38,058 nucleotides of DNA, taken from positions 1 to 38,058 of the forward strand of contig CAYVTP010000006.1 of the NCBI GenBank assembly GCA_964454615.1, read 5' to 3'. Below are positions 19,451-26,787 of this stretch, in pieces. A program made the translations under genes and the position numbers. The notes below the pieces were generated by a model that was not told the origin of the DNA, did not search any database, and saw nothing but the letters and a program-made list of their open reading frames with translations. Position 1 is the stretch's first letter; each line of letters begins with the position of its first letter. Source of the DNA: an uncultured Acidimicrobiaceae bacterium. Its GTDB lineage: Bacteria > Actinomycetota > Acidimicrobiia > Spongiisociales > ZC4RG35.

Positions 19451-20581
19451 GTGAACGTGATCGACTGGCTGCTCGACTCCGACCCTTCGATTCGGTGGCA
19501 GGTGATGCGTGATCTGACCGCCGCTCCCGACGAAGCGGTTGCCGCCGAGCGCTCCCGGGTGGCCAGGGAGGGCTGGGGCGCCCGCCTCCTCGCCGAGCAG
19601 AGCCCGTCGGGCAGGTGGGGAGTGGGCGATCTGTCCCCCGAGGACCTGCGCACGGGAGATTCGCTGCCGGACCCCGAGACCCGTCGCCTCCTCCGTGAGC
19701 TCCAAGCCGCCACACCCCAACAGATGGCAGACTTCATGGAGGTCGACCTCGACACGGTGTCGCGGTGGGAGAGTGGTGAAGCCGACGACGACCCGTCGAC
19801 CGACCGGTATCGCTCGGTGGTCGACTGGATGAGGGTCACCGTGGGCACTTACAACCCCAAGTGGATCTCGACCACCTACACCCTGCTGTTGCTCAGGGAC
19901 ATGGGGATAGACCCGGACGACACCATTGTGAGGGAGGCGATCAGCCTGGTTCACGACGGGTCGAAGCACGACGTCGGCGAGGGGGGTTTCTTCGACGGGG
20001 AGACCGAGCCCTGCATCAACGGGATGGTGGTTGCCATCGGCTCGTACTTCGGTCGGCCGGTGGATGCCGTGGTCGAGCGAATCCTGGGCGAACAACTCGC
20101 CGATGGGGGTTGGAACTGTGAGGCGGTCAACGGCTCGACCCGGTCGTCTTTCCACACCACCATCTGCATTCTCGAAGGCCTCCTCGGGTACGAGAAGGCC
20201 CTGGGCGGAGAGCCCGTGGTGGCAACGGCTCGGAATCGGGCGGAGGAGTATCTACTGGAGAGGCGACTGTTCCGCCGGATGTCGAACGGGGAGATCATCG
20301 ACCCGGTCTGGACGCGCTTCTCATTCCCACCACGCTTCCACTACGACGTCCTGCGAGGGCTCGACTACTTCCGAAGCACAGGGGCCGCCCCCGATGGCCG
20401 CCTGTCCGATGGCGTCGAACTGCTCGAGAGCAAGAGGCAGGCCGACGGGCGGTGGGCCTTGGAGAACACCCATCCGGCCCGGGTCTACTTCGAGATGGAC
20501 GACGGGGACGGCCAACCCAGCCGCTGGAACACACTGCGGGCGATGCGCGTCCTCGATTGGTACAACCGCTCGGACGGCTGA
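19451..20581 (+). CDS. Prenyltransferase/squalene-cyclase-like repeat protein with an internal XRE-like HTH
   Basis: WLLDSDPSIRWQV, QxxxGxW repeats (QSPSGRW, QLADGGW, QADGRW), EPCING, SSFHTT, YDVLRGLDY, SRWNTLRA; RBS GGAGG. Confidence 0.85.
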   Translation: MNVIDWLLDSDPSIRWQVMRDLTAAPDEAVAAERSRVAREGWGARLLAEQSPSGRWGVGDLSPEDLRTGDSLPDPETRRLLRELQAATPQQMADFMEVDLDTVSRWESGEADDDPSTDRYRSVVDWMRVTVGTYNPKWISTTYTLLLLRDMGIDPDDTIVREAISLVHDGSKHDVGEGGFFDGETEPCINGMVVAIGSYFGRPVDAVVERILGEQLADGGWNCEAVNGSTRSSFHTTICILEGLLGYEKALGGEPVVATARNRAEEYLLERRLFRRMSNGEIIDPVWTRFSFPPRFHYDVLRGLDYFRSTGAAPDGRLSDGVELLESKRQADGRWALENTHPARVYFEMDDGDGQPSRWNTLRAMRVLDWYNRSDG

Positions 20582-20730
20582 TCGCTTCTAGTAGGCGGGC
20601 CGACTTGGTCGGCGATCCCCGACCCCTCGCTTGGGATGCCAGGGTACGACCACCAATCCGACCATTCAGGCTGGGGGATCGGGGCCGACCGGTGCTCAAT
20701 TGTTGGTTCGAATCTGCCGAAAGGGTGGGT

Positions 20731-22485
20731 GTGGGAACCCAGCTGACACACCTGCTTGGCGCGCGCCGTTGGGCGTTGCCGGGGCCCATAGTCGGCCTGC
20801 TGGTCATCGGGGCCGTGGTCGCCTATTTGGAGCCGGGATTGGGCGATGCCATCGGGGCTCCCGGCTTGGTGCTCGCCTACTTCATCGGCGCCTTCCTGTT
20901 GCTGTCGCGCTCTCGCCGGCTGGTCCCCAGGGAGGCGGTGGCCTGGAGGTTTCTCGGCTCGGGGATGGCCCTTGTTGCCACCGGAGTCCTCGTCATCGTC
21001 GTCCTCCACGTGGCAGGTGTGGATGTCCCCGCTTTCGGCCCGATCGACCTGTTCTTCCTGGCCGGCTACGGGATGTTCCTGGTCGCCCTCTACCTGCTGG
21101 CCCGCGCCGACAGTGGCGGCCGGGCCTGGGTGTTGACGCTGCTCGATGCGCTGGTGGGAGCCGTTGCGTTGGGCACCCTTGCATGGGCATACCTTTACAG
21201 CGAGCTGATCGCCACCCTGGCGGGGGCGCCCAGGTGGGAGGCCGTGGTGGCTTCGGTCTACCCCGTACTGGACATCGCCGCGGTGATCCTGCTCATGATC
21301 CTCCTCCTGCGCCGAAGCAACTTCCACTGGGACCCGAGGCTGGTCCTCATCACCCTGGGCATCGGTATCCAGGTTGCCGCCGATGTCCTTTACCTTCGTG
21401 ACGGCCTCGGTCAGAGTTTCGCCGAGGCCGAACCGGTCTACTGGTTGTTCCTGCTCTCGGCGGCGTTTCTGATCGCGGCGGCCGCGATCGTCGACATCGA
21501 GCCCCGCAGGAGGGAGTTCCCGGACCGGGCAGCCCCCGTCGTGGCGCTCCTCTGGCCCTATCTTCTGGTCCTCGTCCTGATCGGCACCCACGCCTATCAG
21601 TACCACACGCTGGGAGCCGACCCGGACAGCGTGTTGCTCCTGGACTCGCTGCTCTTCATCGGTGGGCTTGCCCTGATCCGACAGGTGGTGGTCATTCGCC
21701 GGCACCGAGCACGGCTCGAGGTTCAACGCTCGGAGCTGGTGGCTTCGGTCAGCCACGAGCTGAGAACCCCGTTGACAGCAATGGTGGGATACCTGGCCCT
21801 CATCGAGGAGAGCGGTGACGACTTCGCGCGCGAGGCCCGGTCGGAGATGATTTCCGAGGCTGCCGGTCAGGCTCGACACATGGCCCGTCTGGTATCCGAT
21901 CTGGTGATGCTGGCCAGGGGCGGCAACCAGTCGGTGCCCCTGGCGATCTCGGAGACCGCCGTGTCGTCGATCATCAGCGGGGCCTTGCGGGGCATCGACC
22001 CTGAGTCCACCCTGATCGACGAGTCTTTCGAGGGAGACGCCCTGGTCAGGGTGGATGCTGACCGGATCCGACAGGCGTTGAGCAACCTGATCCTCAATGG
22101 CGTGAAGTACGGCGGGGACAGGGTCACTATCACCGGTCGGGTCAAGGCAGGGGACCTGGTGTTCGACGTGCATGACAACGGGCCGGGTCTACCGGTCCGT
22201 CACCAGACTTCGGTCTGGGAGCGTTTCGAGCGAGGCGCCCAGCGCCTCAACTCGTCGATTCCGGGGATGGGTATCGGGCTCTCCATAGTCAAGGCTGTGG
22301 CCGGGGCCCACGGTGGAGAGGCGGAGTACCGGCGTTCAGACCTGTTGGGTGGCGCATGCTTCTCGCTGACCATCCCCGGCTGTGTTGCCCAGTCCTACGA
22401 CGATCGGGCGTCGTCCGACTCGGCCGCCTCCCGACATGAAGGGATGGTCGGGGCGCAGCCGCCTTTCGTGCGGGGTGGCAGCTGA
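20731..22485 (+). CDS. Membrane sensor histidine kinase (multi-TM input domain, HisKA, HATPase)
   Basis: About 9 TM segments; SHELRTPLT, NLILNGVKY, DNGPG, GMGIGLSIV. Start chosen after GAAAGG. No adjacent response regulator. Confidence 0.9.
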   Translation: MGTQLTHLLGARRWALPGPIVGLLVIGAVVAYLEPGLGDAIGAPGLVLAYFIGAFLLLSRSRRLVPREAVAWRFLGSGMALVATGVLVIVVLHVAGVDVPAFGPIDLFFLAGYGMFLVALYLLARADSGGRAWVLTLLDALVGAVALGTLAWAYLYSELIATLAGAPRWEAVVASVYPVLDIAAVILLMILLLRRSNFHWDPRLVLITLGIGIQVAADVLYLRDGLGQSFAEAEPVYWLFLLSAAFLIAAAAIVDIEPRRREFPDRAAPVVALLWPYLLVLVLIGTHAYQYHTLGADPDSVLLLDSLLFIGGLALIRQVVVIRRHRARLEVQRSELVASVSHELRTPLTAMVGYLALIEESGDDFAREARSEMISEAAGQARHMARLVSDLVMLARGGNQSVPLAISETAVSSIISGALRGIDPESTLIDESFEGDALVRVDADRIRQALSNLILNGVKYGGDRVTITGRVKAGDLVFDVHDNGPGLPVRHQTSVWERFERGAQRLNSSIPGMGIGLSIVKAVAGAHGGEAEYRRSDLLGGACFSLTIPGCVAQSYDDRASSDSAASRHEGMVGAQPPFVRGGS

Positions 22486-22489
22486 CCGG

Positions 22490-25168
22490 TCAAACGGGGG
22501 ATTGATTGCCGCTCGCTCGCCGTCGAATCCACTTGTCGATCTCGACCGCTACCAGCACGCTCAGGGCGACCAGGACGATCGGGCCCCACATCGAGGGGTC
22601 GAAAGGCTCGACCCGGAGGATGAACTGCGTGAACGGCAGGTGGAGCGCTGCCACGTGGATCGATAGGGCCGCGACCACAGCACCGAACAGCAGACGGTTC
22701 GAGAAGGGGGAGATCCTGAAGGCGGAGATGGTCTCCGACCTGGCGTTGCCGACGTGGACCGCCTGGAAGATCACCATCGTGGTTACTGCCACCGTCTGAG
22801 CCTGTGTGAGGGATCCTGTGGTGTCGAGTGTCCACCGGAACATGGCCAGGGTCCCGGTCGCCATGACAATCCCGGTCAGCAGGGTTCGCTGCCAGAGAAG
22901 ACGGGAGATGATTCCCTCCCGCCTCGGTCTGGGTTGCCTGCTGGTGACCCCGGGCTCCTCCGGCTCGAAGGCCAGGGCAACGTCCTGGACTCCGTTGGTG
23001 ACCAGGTTCAACCACAGGATCTGGGCAGGCAGCATGGGGAGGGGCCATCCGGCCGCCACCGCGGCGAGGATGGCGAGGATCTCCGCGGCGCCGCTGGAGA
23101 TCAGGAAGAAGGTCACCTTGCGCAGATTGTCGAAGGTGATCCGTCCCTGGCGTACTGCCTCGAAGATGCTGACGAAGTTGTCGTCGGCGAGCACCATGTC
23201 GGATGCCTCTCGTGCCACATCGGTTCCTGAGATCCCCATCGCCACTCCGACGTCGGCCACCTTGAGTGCAGGGGCGTCATTCACCCCATCGCCGGTGACA
23301 GCTACCACGTGGTCGAGGGACTGGAGCGCCCGAACCACTCGGAGCTTGTGCTCCGGTGAGACGCGGGCGAAGACAGACACTTCCCCGAGCGCCTCGACCA
23401 GCTGGGAGTCGTCCAGCTCCTCCATCTCACGGCCGGTGATCACCCGGTCGTCAGCCGTGGCGATGCCCAGCTGGTCCGAGATGGAGAGGGCGGTCTCGGC
23501 GTGGTCGCCGGTGATCATGACCACCCGTATGCCGCTCCGCTGACAGTCGGCGATGGCCTCGAGGACGCCCTCACGAGGCGGATCCATCATCCCCTGCAGC
23601 CCGAGGAAGGTGAGTCCCTCGGGTTCTTCTAGGTCATCGTCTGATGCCGGTCCCGGCCTGTGCGCCATGGCGAGCACCCGTAGTCCCCGGGCCGCCATCT
23701 CTGCAGCTGCAGCTTCGATCCGATCCTTGTCCAGTCCGACGGCGCCGTCGTCCGAGGCCATGTCCTGGCACATTTCCAGGATCCGCTCGGGGGCACCCTT
23801 CACGAACAGCGCCTCATCCTCGCCGTCGTTCCGGTGGCTCCCCGAGAATCTGCGCTCCGGTTCGAACGGGATCTCCTGTAGCGACTGCCATCGGTCCCGC
23901 TCCTCCTCAGGGCTCACGCCGATGTGGTCGGCGGCCACCAGCAAGGCGATCTCGGTGGGGTCCCCGACCGCCTCTCGGTCGTCGGCGACTCCTGCGTCGT
24001 AAGGCGCCTCGCTGGCGAGTACTCCGGCGAGCAGTGTCCTTCGAAGCGTGGGCGAGTCGGGAGCCTGATCGTCGAGATCGTGAGTCGTCCCGGCATACCA
24101 GATCTCCTGGACGGTCATCCGGTTGGCGGTGAGGGTCCCGGTCTTGTCCGAACCGATGGCGCTGATGCTGCCCAGAGTTTCCACAGCCGGGAGGCGTCGG
24201 ATGATCGCCTTCCTCCTGGCCATTCGCTGGACCCCGATGGCCAGGGTGATGGTGAGGACCGCAGGCAGGCCTTCGGGTATTGCCGAGACCGCCAGGGCCA
24301 CCCCGACCAGGAACATGTCCCCGATCTCCCCTCCGCGCAACACTCCGAGCGGGACCGAGAGGGCCGCTGCCAGAGCCACCACGACTCCCACAACCTTGGC
24401 GAACCGGGCCATCCGCTGCTGAAGGGGAGTGGGTGGCTCCTCTTCTTCACGGATCTGGGTGGCGATCTTGCCGAGCTCTGTATCAGTGCCGGTGGCCATC
24501 ACATAGCCGCTGCCGCGGCCGGAGGTGACCACGGTGCCGGTGAAGGCGATGTTGGAGCGGTCCCCTACCGGAACAGTCTCGCCCAGGGCGTCAGAGTCTT
24601 TCGAGGCGGGAACCGACTCGCCGGTGAGGAGCGACTCGTCGATGGCCAGGGTGGTGGTCGTGGCGAGGCGGAGGTCGGCCGGCACCCTCTGGCCAGACTC
24701 GAGCAATACCAGGTCGCCGACTACCACTTCCTGACTGTCGACCACGAGCTCCCGTCCATCGCGGAGGATGTGGGCCTTCGGGGCGACCAGTCCGGTGAGG
24801 GCCCTCACCGCGTTCTCAGCCTTCCGCTCCTGGAAGAACCCGATCCCGGCGTTGAGGGCGAGAACGAAGAAGATCACTCCGGCGTCGATGTACTCCCCAA
24901 TGGCCAGGGTGACCAGCATGGCCACCAGGAGTATGTAGACCAGGGGGCTCTGGAACTGGTGGAGGAGCTGCTCCCAGACACTGGGAGGCTCATCCTCGGC
25001 TATGACATTCGGTCCCCATGCTTCGAGGCGGCTGAGGGCTTCGTCTTGGCTGAGGCCCCGGCGTCCGGTCTCCAGCACCTCTGTGACCTCCTCGACGGAC
25101 ATCACCACCCAGTCACCCGAGGGCAAGTCCTGAGTTGGGCTGGTCTCGTTGGTCACCGATCGCCTCAC
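22490..25168 (-). CDS. P-type cation-transporting ATPase, type IIA (Ca2+-like; CtpF-like)
   Basis: TGES, IPEGL, DKTGT, KGAPE, DPPR, TGD, GDGVND, QILWLNLVTN. Start uncertain. Confidence 0.95.
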   Translation of the reverse strand: MRRSVTNETSPTQDLPSGDWVVMSVEEVTEVLETGRRGLSQDEALSRLEAWGPNVIAEDEPPSVWEQLLHQFQSPLVYILLVAMLVTLAIGEYIDAGVIFFVLALNAGIGFFQERKAENAVRALTGLVAPKAHILRDGRELVVDSQEVVVGDLVLLESGQRVPADLRLATTTTLAIDESLLTGESVPASKDSDALGETVPVGDRSNIAFTGTVVTSGRGSGYVMATGTDTELGKIATQIREEEEPPTPLQQRMARFAKVVGVVVALAAALSVPLGVLRGGEIGDMFLVGVALAVSAIPEGLPAVLTITLAIGVQRMARRKAIIRRLPAVETLGSISAIGSDKTGTLTANRMTVQEIWYAGTTHDLDDQAPDSPTLRRTLLAGVLASEAPYDAGVADDREAVGDPTEIALLVAADHIGVSPEEERDRWQSLQEIPFEPERRFSGSHRNDGEDEALFVKGAPERILEMCQDMASDDGAVGLDKDRIEAAAAEMAARGLRVLAMAHRPGPASDDDLEEPEGLTFLGLQGMMDPPREGVLEAIADCQRSGIRVVMITGDHAETALSISDQLGIATADDRVITGREMEELDDSQLVEALGEVSVFARVSPEHKLRVVRALQSLDHVVAVTGDGVNDAPALKVADVGVAMGISGTDVAREASDMVLADDNFVSIFEAVRQGRITFDNLRKVTFFLISSGAAEILAILAAVAAGWPLPMLPAQILWLNLVTNGVQDVALAFEPEEPGVTSRQPRPRREGIISRLLWQRTLLTGIVMATGTLAMFRWTLDTTGSLTQAQTVAVTTMVIFQAVHVGNARSETISAFRISPFSNRLLFGAVVAALSIHVAALHLPFTQFILRVEPFDPSMWGPIVLVALSVLVAVEIDKWIRRRASGNQSPV

Positions 25169-25351
25169 GCACCTGGTCGTCCGGGCCTCTACCCGGAACG
25201 AGCCAAGGTACTAGAGGGCGCCGGTCAGTTGGGACGAAGGCATGCAGGCGGACCGCCTCGGGTCTCCCTGGTCGGTTGTGGCTGCTCGGCTGGTAGCGTC
25301 AGGTGGTCGGAAGATCCGGCACTGCCCACACGACCAAGGAGGTTGCGGTCC

Positions 25352-25423
25352 ATGACCGCTGACAGTTCCCAGACAAAGGCTGTTGCCCCCTCCCCGGGTC
25401 AAGTCGAGGTCGACGCGGCCTGA
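25352..25423 (+). CDS. Putative mgtE leader peptide (23 aa, MTADSSQTKAVAPSPGQVEVDAA)
   Basis: Perfect SD AAGGAGG at 25336-25342, ATG 25352, TGA 25421-25423, downstream of extended -10 TGgTAGCGT (25291-25299). Confidence 0.6.
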   Translation: MTADSSQTKAVAPSPGQVEVDAA

Positions 25424-25459
25424 CTCGACTTCTGGGGGACGCAGCTCTTCCCAGGAGTC
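25401..25459 (+). promoter_or_regulatory. Alternative hairpins controlling the mgtE RBS (candidate translational attenuator)
   Basis: AAGTCGAG(25401-08)/CTCGACTT(25424-31) competes with GACTTCTGGG(25427-36)/CCCAGGAGTC(25450-59); the latter buries AGGAG. Confidence 0.6.
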
Positions 25460-25464
25460 ATCAC

Positions 25465-26787
25465 ATGCCACAGTCGATTCACCGGTACCTGCACTCGTTC
25501 GACGACATCGAAGAGCGGCTGATGGCCGCGCCCGTGGGGGAAGTGGCCGAGGAGCTGGAGCGGCTCGAACCGGACGACAGGGTGGTCGCCTTCCGGCTTC
25601 TGCCCCGCGACCGCGCCCTGGCCGTCTTCGAGTCGATGGACACCGCAATCCAACAGGAGATCCTCGAAGGCCTGCGGGATGATAGGTTTCGCCAGCTCCT
25701 GGAGGACCTCGACCCGGACGACAGGGCCCGGCTGCTCGACGAGTTGCCGGCCAAGGTCGCCAAGCGGGCCCTGCTTGGCCTGAGCCCAGCCGAGCGCCGG
25801 TACACCGCTGCTCTCCTCGGCTATTCCGAGGACTCGGCCGGAAGGGTCATGACCCCGGAGTTCGTCAGCCTGCGGGCATCGATGACGGTGGAAGGAGCTC
25901 TCGCCAAGATCAAGAGGAGCACGACCGAGCCCGAGACGTTGTTCGCCTTGCCGGTGACCGACGAGGAGCGTCAGCTCGTCGGACGGATCGACCTGCCTGC
26001 GCTGGTGAGGGCCAGCCCCGAGGTGAAGGTCGGAGAGCTCATGACCTCACAGGTGGAGACGGTGCAGGCCGACGATGATCAGGAGGTCGCCGCCCGATTG
26101 ATCGCCGATCGCCGGCTGGCGGTGCTGCCGGTACTGGACTCGGAGGCCCGGTTGGTCGGTGTCATCACCGCCGACGACGCCATGAGGATCCTCGAAGAGG
26201 AGGGGACAGAGGACCTGGTCCGTGCCGGTGGTTCGGAACCGCTGGGTCGCCCCTACTTCGATGCTTCCGCCCTCCAGCTCGCCGCCCGCAGGGCGACGTG
26301 GTTGTTGGTGCTGGCCGTCGGTGCCACCTTGACGGTCAATGTCATGGGCTACTTCGAGGAGACTCTTGCCGCCTATGTGGTGCTGGCGCTGTTCATCCCG
26401 CTGCTGATCGACACCGGAGGCAATACCGGGGCGCAGGCGGCGACAGTGGTCATTCGTGCCATGTCGCTCGGTGAGGTCCGTCTCGGTGATCTGCCGAAGG
26501 TGGTGTTCCGTGAGGCCCGAGTGGGGATCCTTCTCGGGGCGATGCTGGCAGTGGTGGCCTTCGTTCCGGTTGCCTTCTTCTTCGGGACGGGCATGGCATG
26601 GACCATCAGCCTCACCCTGGTAGCCGTGTGCACCTGGGCGACCTTCGCCGGCGCGATGCTTCCGATGGTGGCGGAGCGGATCGGAATCGATCCGGCCGTG
26701 GTCTCGGCGCCGTTCATCACGACGCTCGTCGACGCCACCGGCCTGATCGTCTACTTCGTCATCGCCAGGGCGATCCTGGGGATCTAG
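25465..26787 (+). CDS. mgtE: Magnesium transporter MgtE
   Basis: MgtE_N (LDPDDRARLLDELP), SAGRVMTPEF and CBS pair, R..WL, PLLIDTGGNTGAQ, DPAVVSAPFITTLVD. Confidence 0.97.
   Translation: MPQSIHRYLHSFDDIEERLMAAPVGEVAEELERLEPDDRVVAFRLLPRDRALAVFESMDTAIQQEILEGLRDDRFRQLLEDLDPDDRARLLDELPAKVAKRALLGLSPAERRYTAALLGYSEDSAGRVMTPEFVSLRASMTVEGALAKIKRSTTEPETLFALPVTDEERQLVGRIDLPALVRASPEVKVGELMTSQVETVQADDDQEVAARLIADRRLAVLPVLDSEARLVGVITADDAMRILEEEGTEDLVRAGGSEPLGRPYFDASALQLAARRATWLLVLAVGATLTVNVMGYFEETLAAYVVLALFIPLLIDTGGNTGAQAATVVIRAMSLGEVRLGDLPKVVFREARVGILLGAMLAVVAFVPVAFFFGTGMAWTISLTLVAVCTWATFAGAMLPMVAERIGIDPAVVSAPFITTLVDATGLIVYFVIARAILGI

Follow-up and report, generated by a model that had tools for sequence, protein, structure and literature searches.

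Organization of the mgtE leader

The 38,058-nucleotide (nt) stretch of DNA analysed here, positions 1 to 38,058 of the forward strand of contig CAYVTP010000006.1 (assembly GCA_964454615.1) from an uncultured Acidimicrobiaceae bacterium and hereafter called the window, carries on its plus strand an mgtE gene (25465..26787, 440 amino acids) for a second, sporadically distributed paralogue of MgtE. This gene is preceded by a leader, also on the plus strand, in which a small upstream open reading frame (uORF1) with a hairpin-enclosed start is followed by a helix that covers the Shine-Dalgarno (SD) sequence of mgtE. An earlier note on the window had described this leader as an attenuator gating mgtE, and every sequence string on which it relied was found again in its place.

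From 5' to 3', the leader opens with a TG dinucleotide (25291-92) and a -10-like hexamer, TAGCGT (25294-99), which together make up the element TGG-TAGCGT (25291-25299), followed by a predicted GC-rich hairpin (25306..25320) close to the putative 5' end of the mRNA. The SD sequence of uORF1 (SD1, AGGAGGT, 25337..25343, with AAGGAGG at 25336-25342) precedes a start-codon hairpin, P1, of the form GCGGTC / CAT / GACCGC (25345-50 and 25354-59), whose loop holds the AU of the start codon. P1 is itself part of an extended imperfect hairpin around the start of the leader ORF (25337..25369, the TIR1 gate), in which SD1 pairs with the bases GAC..UUCC flanking P1. uORF1 (25352..25423) runs from an ATG at 25352 through 23 codons to a TGA at 25421-25423 and reads MTADSSQTKAVAPSPGQVEVDAA. 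Two structures meet at its end. Hairpin A, AAGTCGAG / CTCGACTT (25401-25408 / 25424-25431), is specific to the window and has the uORF1 stop in its loop. The core of hairpin B, GACTTCTGGG / CCCAGGAGTC (25427-36 / 25450-59), covers the SD sequence of mgtE (SD2, AGGAG, 25453..25457); with its outer pairs helix B spans 25417..25469 and joins the stop and last codons of uORF1 (25417-22) to the next start codon, AUG2 (25464-69).

Recurrence of the element upstream of mgtE

The element was found upstream of mgtE in 11 loci, namely the window, nine related Acidimicrobiia genomes and one metagenome contig, and in all of them the same set recurs 5' of mgtE: a core of SD and start hairpin, an ORF of 19 to 23 codons and a helix sequestering SD2. 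It is thus a real, conserved and mgtE-specific leader, beyond what chance would give. Five of these loci (L002, L003, L063, L064 and L066) are orthologous to that of the window, with protein identities of 65-71%. The metagenome contig (L070) was the sole match of an exact-pattern scan of metagenome contigs, and four further members (L085-L088) emerged when 401 genomes of the order were scanned with the pattern at a tolerance of up to 3 mismatches. This latter scan matched 48 places in 45 genomes, of which eight, with 0-2 mismatches, are true members. None of the 13 checked among the 40 other matches was real, three lying within long ORFs and ten having no mgtE within 1.5 kb. Since a reversed-pattern control matched about 25 genomes, the non-member matches are mostly noise. 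The core pattern is unique within the window's own genome, and its exact form is single-copy in four of the five other genomes checked (G014 has an additional match with three mismatches inside an ORF); the fifth, G177, was missed by the fixed-spacing pattern, having one extra base after SD1.

The metagenome contig and L085-L088 (hereafter the relay-type loci) carry the leader before a different MgtE clade. The MgtE of L085 is 28% identical to the window protein and 51% identical to the product of the other mgtE of the window's host genome, and between the two clades the 30-nt cores differ, in the closest case, by a single base. A near-identical core in front of proteins this distant suggests that the leader tracks MgtE function rather than a single gene lineage. 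A simple heuristic found no similar strong-SD uORF in 25 housekeeping-type mgtE loci of relatives, a count that, alone among those given here, includes a locus of an unpublished genome (L006 of G027). The core was likewise absent upstream of the host genome's second mgtE (L073), where part of the upstream region is masked, and no comparable uORF was present in six proteobacterial mgtE upstream regions inspected. Contigs from soil-metagenome DNA (4 runs) are identical to the window where they cover it and supplied therefore no natural variants.

Hairpin-enclosed start of uORF1

SD1 reads AGGAGGT in 10 of the 11 loci and AGGAGGC in L087, and its spacing to the start codon is constant in all but L064, which has one extra base. 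The start codon, AUG in six loci and GUG in five, lies in the P1 loop of 3 or 5 nt. As proposed in the earlier note, the leader start does lie in the hairpin GCGGTC-CAT-GACCGC, and this stem covaries across the loci: 65 of 66 P1 cells are paired and two of the six pairs show compensatory changes (U-A to C-G twice, G-C to U-A once), values reached by none of 500 shuffles. The predicted stability of P1 is -9.5 kcal/mol in the window and -9.1 to -9.8 kcal/mol over the seven loci computed. Because residues 2 and 3 of the encoded peptide change with these compensations, the helix is the stronger constraint at those positions.

P1 is enclosed in a larger fold. The 33-nt start element forms one imperfect hairpin of -11.7 to -14.6 kcal/mol in all 11 loci (z = -1.7 to -2.75), and SD1 is paired in its minimum-energy fold in nine of them. 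The partner is a conserved GAC-AG-U(C/U)C located 3' of P1 and complementary to SD1; this pairing with GAC..UUCC accounts for the conserved GACAGT at 25361-66. In the extended hairpin 92.4% of the cells are paired, against at most 50% in controls with the partners slid. No compensatory change occurs outside P1, and none is possible in the SD1 pairing because SD1 itself cannot vary.

GACAGU has an alternative partner, a GCUGU(C/U) further downstream within uORF1, in five loci: the window (25361-25384), L003, L070, L085 and L087. This alternative hairpin competes with the SD1:GAC..UCC pairing and has no covariation support. A riboswitch-like three-helix junction composed of SD1:CUCCC, P1 and GACAGU:GCUGUC (P0-P1-P2) was also considered and rejected. 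About half of the minimum-energy folds would allow it, but neither covariation nor energetics lend it support: P0 has 79.5% and P2 69-79% of cells paired, the observed pairing is reached by 84 of 500 shuffles, and the only compensatory change outside P1 falls in one poorly paired P2 column.

Upstream of the start element, a TANNNT hexamer lies 31-66 nt 5' of SD1 in all 11 loci, an interval picked after the data were seen and for which the chance of a match is 0.07-0.26 per locus; in all five relay-type loci the hexamer is TATGAT. A hairpin is predicted in the putative 5' untranslated region of every locus (-7.9 kcal/mol in the window, weak in L063 at -3.4 kcal/mol), its sequence not being conserved.

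The leader ORF and its peptide

The leader ORF with strong SD put forward in the earlier note is conserved in all 11 loci, with 19-23 codons (23 in eight loci) and a UGA stop in ten. In the seven loci compared in this respect, 57-69 nt separate the start from the first in-frame stop, no other in-frame stop precedes AUG2 except a second one in L070, and the phase between the uORF1 start (AUG1) and AUG2 takes all three values. Consequently, uORF1 is not an N-terminal extension of mgtE. The uORF1 frame of the window is open for a further 499 codons upstream (23924-25423, plus strand), antisense to an ATPase gene; this long open frame is an artefact of GC-richness, the true uORF being set by the conserved SD and start.

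Over its first 14 codons the peptide follows a weak consensus, MTADS[PS]x x[KL]GAV[SA][LP], and Pro6, Gly10 and Ala11 are retained through synonymous changes. For codons 2-14 the ratio of non-synonymous to synonymous variation (pN/pS) is 0.56-0.59 in the uORF1 frame, the lowest of the three, versus 0.90-1.50 in the other two. The codon of Ser5 is AGU in all loci, which is explained by its pairing to SD1. The C-terminal half is not conserved, nor are the Pro-Ser-Pro run and the acidic end that the earlier note had singled out: both are present in the window and are not kept among the loci. The peptide is strongly divergent in L002 and L064.

An mgtL-like leader with a DE/P-rich motif or a Pro run was considered and rejected. 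With at least four D, E or P residues in a 6-residue window as the threshold (10.1101/2021.02.02.429294), only one of the 11 peptides qualifies, that of L070, and the maximum in the window's peptide is 2. The number of Pro residues per uORF1 peptide ranges from 0 to 4, without a conserved run.

Sequestration of the mgtE Shine-Dalgarno sequence by helix B

Helix B was judged from per-sequence folds because the combination of MAFFT and RNAalifold misaligned its arms and gave a meaningless consensus (-0.92 kcal/mol). In the window, hairpin B alone is predicted at -17.3 kcal/mol, and the module from the uORF1 stop to AUG2 is more stable than its shuffles (z = -3.06; only one of 200 shuffles as stable). 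Over ten loci, the window first, the module z-scores are -3.06, -2.17, -4.21, -3.50, -3.54, -2.57, -3.22, -1.46, -3.67 and -2.51. Within the module's minimum-energy fold, SD2 is base-paired in 10 of the 11 loci, fully so in the window, where its unpaired probability is 0.00 in the ensemble of the free leader. These results bear out the claim that helix B sequesters the mgtE SD and extend it to the relatives. Forcing the segment from SD2 to AUG2 to be single-stranded costs 3.4-8.8 kcal/mol in the seven loci computed.

The position of this helix relative to uORF1 is also preserved. In 10 of 11 loci the bases that pair with SD2 (anti-SD) lie 4-11 nt past the first base of the uORF1 stop. Pairing takes in two or more bases of the stop codon itself in eight loci, and AUG2 is located 37-51 nt 3' of the stop. 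Several loci also pair the stop, or else the final sense codon, with the A or G of AUG2, as in the pairs U25421-A25465 and C25419-G25467 of the window. The base of helix B differs compensatorily among loci (UGAGC/GCUCA, UGAAC/GUUCA, GAU/AUC), and its apical hairpin of a G-run and a C-run is variable.

AUG2 starts mgtE itself in six of the loci, that of the window among them. At the five relay-type loci, whose MgtE proteins are 473-482 amino acids long, AUG2 opens instead a second, non-conserved small ORF of 15-25 codons (uORF2; 525-590 in L070, 459-521 in L085, 444-521 in L086, 438-485 in L087, and on the minus strand in L088), the stop of which overlaps the mgtE start as GTGA, ATGA or ATG..TGA. 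The mgtE of the window begins MPQSI and the uORF2 of L070 begins MPKPI. Judging by these sequences, a frame change may link the two arrangements.

A proposed translational relay and its alternatives

The arrangement of these parts suggests that the leader may act as a translational relay, in which translation of uORF1 opens helix B and switches mgtE on, that is, by coupling through RNA unfolding; we give this model, drawn from sequence comparison and predicted folds, an even chance of being correct. In such a relay the transcript probably starts about 7 nt past the TANNNT hexamer. Its first gate would be the imperfect hairpin (-12 to -15 kcal/mol) enclosing the SD and start codon of uORF1, and its second gate helix B, far more stable, which would tie up by pairing both the SD that follows and part of its start codon, with the uORF1 stop at the base. 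A ribosome with a stop codon in its A site covers about 12 nt past the first base of that stop. Positioned at the uORF1 stop, it would cover the entire anti-SD arm, and SD2, at least 25 nt downstream, would lie outside the footprint. Because the anti-SD lies inside this footprint, the terminating ribosome would be expected to melt helix B and to make SD2 and AUG2 accessible to a second ribosome. The overlap of uORF2 stop and mgtE start in the five relay-type loci would provide a second coupling step. The regulated step would most likely be initiation at uORF1, through opening of the first gate, or else would reside in the conserved N-terminal nascent peptide. Translation of uORF1, the dependence of mgtE translation on it and the polarity are all inferred: the geometry of stop and anti-SD suggests that full translation of uORF1 means on, the opposite of the example given in the earlier note, where full translation meant off.

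Several observations weigh against the relay or against the conservation on which it builds. The core is absent in six of 12 distinct loci of the window type (L031, which is the same as L065, L067, L068, L069, L071 and L072), and the 11 sequences that carry it are phylogenetically clustered, three loci coming from one genus and several cores being identical. One of the members, L002, is without a convincing helix B (z = -0.39). Across the relatives it is the uORF that is conserved and P1 that covaries; covariation outside P1 is anecdotal, the alignment by MAFFT and RNAalifold having failed for helix B. The whole 181-nt leader of the window is barely more stable than its shuffles (z = -1.13), and the 72-nt 5' domains have z-scores of about 0 (-0.8 to +0.8). 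In free whole-leader ensembles the unpaired probability of SD2 is at most 0.03 in only four of 11 loci, and masking the stop with a ribosome raises SD2 accessibility in eight loci, leaves it flat in two and lowers it in one, a seven-locus version being similarly mixed. The pN/pS signal is modest and confounded by constraints at the RNA level. The extended -10 element claimed in the earlier note stands as a sequence and through the recurrence of TANNNT, and a sigma-70 consensus scan found no promoter. Finally, the efficiency of coupling is described as usually dropping with growing distance between stop and start (PMC12548453).

[quoted passage not shown] The window itself lends it something, since A (-12.1 kcal/mol alone), with the stop in its loop, shares GACTT with B as described, and both arms of A are transcribed ahead of the 3' arm of B, so that A could form first. 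A -25 kcal/mol duplex of the uORF1 body with the 5' arm of B also beats shuffles in the window (p 0.003) and in L063 (p 0.017). Over the seven loci compared, all those other than L085-L088, these are the only two where such A-type pairing exceeds chance, the other five being within it; hairpin A was consequently rejected as a feature of the family, and the switch between A and B does not generalise. In the window, moreover, B is present in the minimum-energy fold and beats the best SD2-exposing fold by 6.1 kcal/mol, a ribosome melting A as it finishes the uORF would melt the 5' arm of B as well, and neither Pro codons nor acidic tails are conserved. We regard this switch as quite unlikely. A somewhat better, though still unlikely, candidate is a stalling sensor resembling TnaC or erm, in which the conserved N-terminal peptide, kept by the 23-codon length at a constant distance from the stop, would arrest the ribosome at or near the UGA upon a signal (such as low Mg2+ or a metabolite) and so hold helix B open for long. 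It amounts to a special case of the coupling reading in which the sensor sits in the nascent chain. The preference for 23 codons (8 of 11 loci) and for UGA (10 of 11) would fit it, together with peptide-level selection on codons 2-14, where synonymous variation keeps Pro6, Gly10 and Ala11, and with a ribosome on the stop that covers the anti-SD and leaves SD2, at least 25 nt downstream, uncovered. The residues nearest the peptidyl-transferase centre, however, show no conservation, the final one being A, V, S or C; a C-terminal Pro is lacking, and the peptide diverges strongly in L002 and L064. UGA is moreover the commonest stop codon in GC-rich genomes and is constrained here by its pairing with UCA as well.

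Two further explanations were considered. Translation of uORF1, and of uORF2 where present, could shield the nascent leader from Rho, helix B being secondary; leader ORFs coupled to Rho are described as governing other classes of Mg2+ transporters (PMC12810186). No intrinsic terminator, however, was found, and the ratio of C to G between AUG1 and AUG2 is 0.90-1.22, so that the region is not C-rich and G-poor like a Rho utilization (rut) site. The exact placement of the stop at the anti-SD would also go unexplained, and we hold Rho-dependent polarity to be very improbable. A trans-acting factor could instead be the sensor, with the 30-nt core as the site of an RNA-binding protein or a small RNA, or with GCGGTC-N3-GACCGC as a DNA operator. 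This would agree with a core that is nearly identical before mgtE genes only 28% identical in protein, and with the 15-bp palindrome that it contains. The compensatory stem changes and the loop of either 3 or 5 nt nevertheless agree less well with a base-specific operator than with an RNA helix, the neighbouring genes differ among loci without a conserved regulator gene nearby, and a core that is single-copy per genome defines no regulon. It is to our mind the least probable of the explanations considered.

The signal is plausibly cytoplasmic Mg2+, a conjecture based only on the exclusive association of the leader with two distant MgtE clades. A more specific version, which we think doubtful, is a two-gate Mg2+ meter without a riboswitch: the start hairpin would melt more readily as free Mg2+ falls, and the ribosomes thereby admitted to uORF1 would open helix B, in itself too stable to breathe. 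The predicted stability of the first gate is kept between -11.7 and -14.6 kcal/mol in both MgtE clades, which share 28% identity. The MTADS..KGAV nascent peptide, its fixed length and a pause at the stop may possibly assist, and a weak physical signal would in this way be amplified into an on/off decision for a Mg2+ channel.

Genomic context of the leader-bearing genes

The MgtE of the window comprises MgtE_N, CBS and MgtE domains (Pfam) and passes the NCBIfam model TIGR00400 with 416.9 bits (cutoff 232.75). Its host genome (2.16 Mb in 234 contigs, 89.6% complete) encodes another MgtE on contig 14, to which it is 28% identical; about 100 bases upstream of this other mgtE (L073, G000 contig 14, about 2645-2745) are masked as N. 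The nearest named relative of the window gene belongs to an Acidimicrobiia metagenome-assembled genome. At E <= 1e-80, orthologues of the window type are rare, occurring in five of 201 genomes of the family, two of 133 genomes of a second family, seven of 401 sampled genomes of the order and five of 401 sampled genomes of the class. A protein-seeded scan of contigs returned mostly proteobacterial and Chloroflexi mgtE genes at 23-52% identity and missed the 70% orthologues.

Divergent from mgtE in the window lies a gene for a P-type ATPase of 892 amino acids (22490-25168, minus strand), closest to Ca2+-type IIA models. Every ion-specific model scores it below cutoff, the generic P-type ATPase model alone being passed, and it is no counterpart of MgtA. 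Beside it is a gene for a sensor histidine kinase of 677 amino acids (20452-22485, plus strand). Neither neighbour is kept at the other leader-bearing loci. In G177 there are two copies of the paralogue, one with and one without the leader; the leader-mgtE unit (L064) is flanked by an ORF ending just upstream (500-680), which by eye we take to resemble an HNH-type nuclease, and by a downstream tRNA gene (2298-2381). The sporadic distribution fits horizontal movement of a leader-mgtE module.

Two orthologues without the core, L071 (1291-1374) and L067 (1210-1287), have unrelated small ORFs with strong SD sequences, of 27 and 25 codons respectively, that of L071 being Pro-rich. The stops of these small ORFs adjoin structure that contains or pairs the mgtE SD, with z-scores of -1.8 for L067 and -1.3 for L071. 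These are hints that the same logic may be wider than the sequence family and have arisen with different sequences.

Relation to known regulatory leaders

Rfam covariance models at their gathering scores gave no M-box match in the window, in 19 related loci (where only tRNAs were found) or in four further loci, and a permissive search of 25100-25600 (E up to 10) returned five unrelated weak matches and no M-box. The absence of an M-box or of any other Rfam family, as asserted in the earlier note, thus holds for the window and 23 related loci. Its claim of novelty fared likewise, as neither a uORF relay on mgtE nor a description of the motif was found in the full texts searched, which omit most subscription journals. 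What is new is the element itself; RBS unmasking by a uORF and translational coupling, the principles by which it would act, are already known.

The 5' arm of the RBS-sequestering helix of erm and cat attenuators lies inside the leader ORF, at the drug-dependent stall site. The present leader shares with them, and with TnaC as outlined in PMC8092293, that the position of a ribosome on a leader ORF would control such a helix. It differs in that the arm begins at or past the stop codon (10 of 11 loci) and in that neither an inducer nor an arrest motif is known for it. Functionally, mgtQ-mgtB of Salmonella comes closest, where translation of mgtQ is reported to free the RBS of mgtB, a Mg2+ transporter gene, from sequestration (PMC8092293). 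In both cases a small ORF lies just 5' of a Mg2+ transporter gene, the RBS is in an inhibitory stem-loop and the action is, or here would be, at the level of translation. By that account mgtQ has 8 codons, is intergenic in an operon, destabilises the ribosome through Asp2 and Glu5 and acts through alternative stem-loops overlapping the ORF (PMC8092293). The present uORF1, unlike mgtQ, has 19-23 codons and lies in the 5' leader of a channel gene (mgtB encodes a P-type ATPase), with a hairpin-enclosed start and the anti-SD just past the stop. Homology to mgtQ was not found either, as residue 2 is T or A, residue 5 is S and there is no sequence similarity.

Coupling by RNA unfolding is described for rpmI-rplT of Escherichia coli (+52 nt), where the ribosome on the upstream cistron unfolds the structure and leaves the RBS free, and for the coat and lysis genes of MS2 (PMC12548453). 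An inhibitory structure round the downstream RBS is predicted here too, at 37-51 nt as compared with +52 nt. Unlike in those systems, the upstream cistron is a dedicated leader ORF that does not look functional in itself, and two coupling steps would act serially in five loci. Here the RBS structure overlaps the established footprint of a ribosome finishing uORF1 in 10 of 11 loci.

Leader ORFs also precede Mg2+ transporter genes in enterobacteria, as in mgtL/mgtA, mgtM/mgtP of mgtCBR and corL/corA. Their translation is taken to report cytoplasmic Mg2+ and acts on transcription elongation via Rho or attenuators, with Pro codons or an EPDP ribosome-destabilising motif. In the Mycobacterium tuberculosis Mbox-uORF leader and in enterobacterial mgtA and corA, translation of the leader ORF is reportedly linked to Rho control. 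The present leader, unlike the mgtL type, has no terminator that could be found, no conserved Pro run and a DE/P motif in only one of 11 loci, and its output would be RBS accessibility.

In PMC12810186, PMC4974804 and PMC11109978, the cis-regulators described for mgtE, namely the M-box and a candidate riboswitch, consist of RNA alone. With the M-box (ykoK), including the mycobacterial mgtE-type Mbox with uORFs (PMC12810186, PMC4974804), the present element has in common that it is a cis-acting 5' leader of mgtE; it differs in being about 170 nt long and made of simple hairpins, with no three-helix aptamer. The candidate 'mgtE motif' riboswitch of Thioalkalivibrio is likewise a structured mgtE leader with SD and AUG at a stem base (PMC11109978). 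It is described as restricted to one gammaproteobacterial genus and has a multi-stem fold for which that description reports no leader ORF, and it is by description only that the two are set apart (PMC11109978).

Significance

Given that the family is small (11 loci found), that its hosts are uncultured soil Acidimicrobiia and that its signal is conjectural, the practical interest of the leader is limited. As a module of about 170 nt, in which a hairpin-gated start leads into a leader ORF and an anti-SD helix anchored at the stop, it would nevertheless be easy to mutate and of use for studies of coupling by RNA unfolding in high-GC Gram-positives. MgtE is the most widespread bacterial Mg2+ channel, and a uORF relay before two of its distant clades would extend translation-based control to it. 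If the two-gate Mg2+ meter considered above is true, MgtE would join MgtA, MgtB and CorA among the Mg2+ transporters under the control of leader-ORF translation, in this case by way of a purely translational relay.

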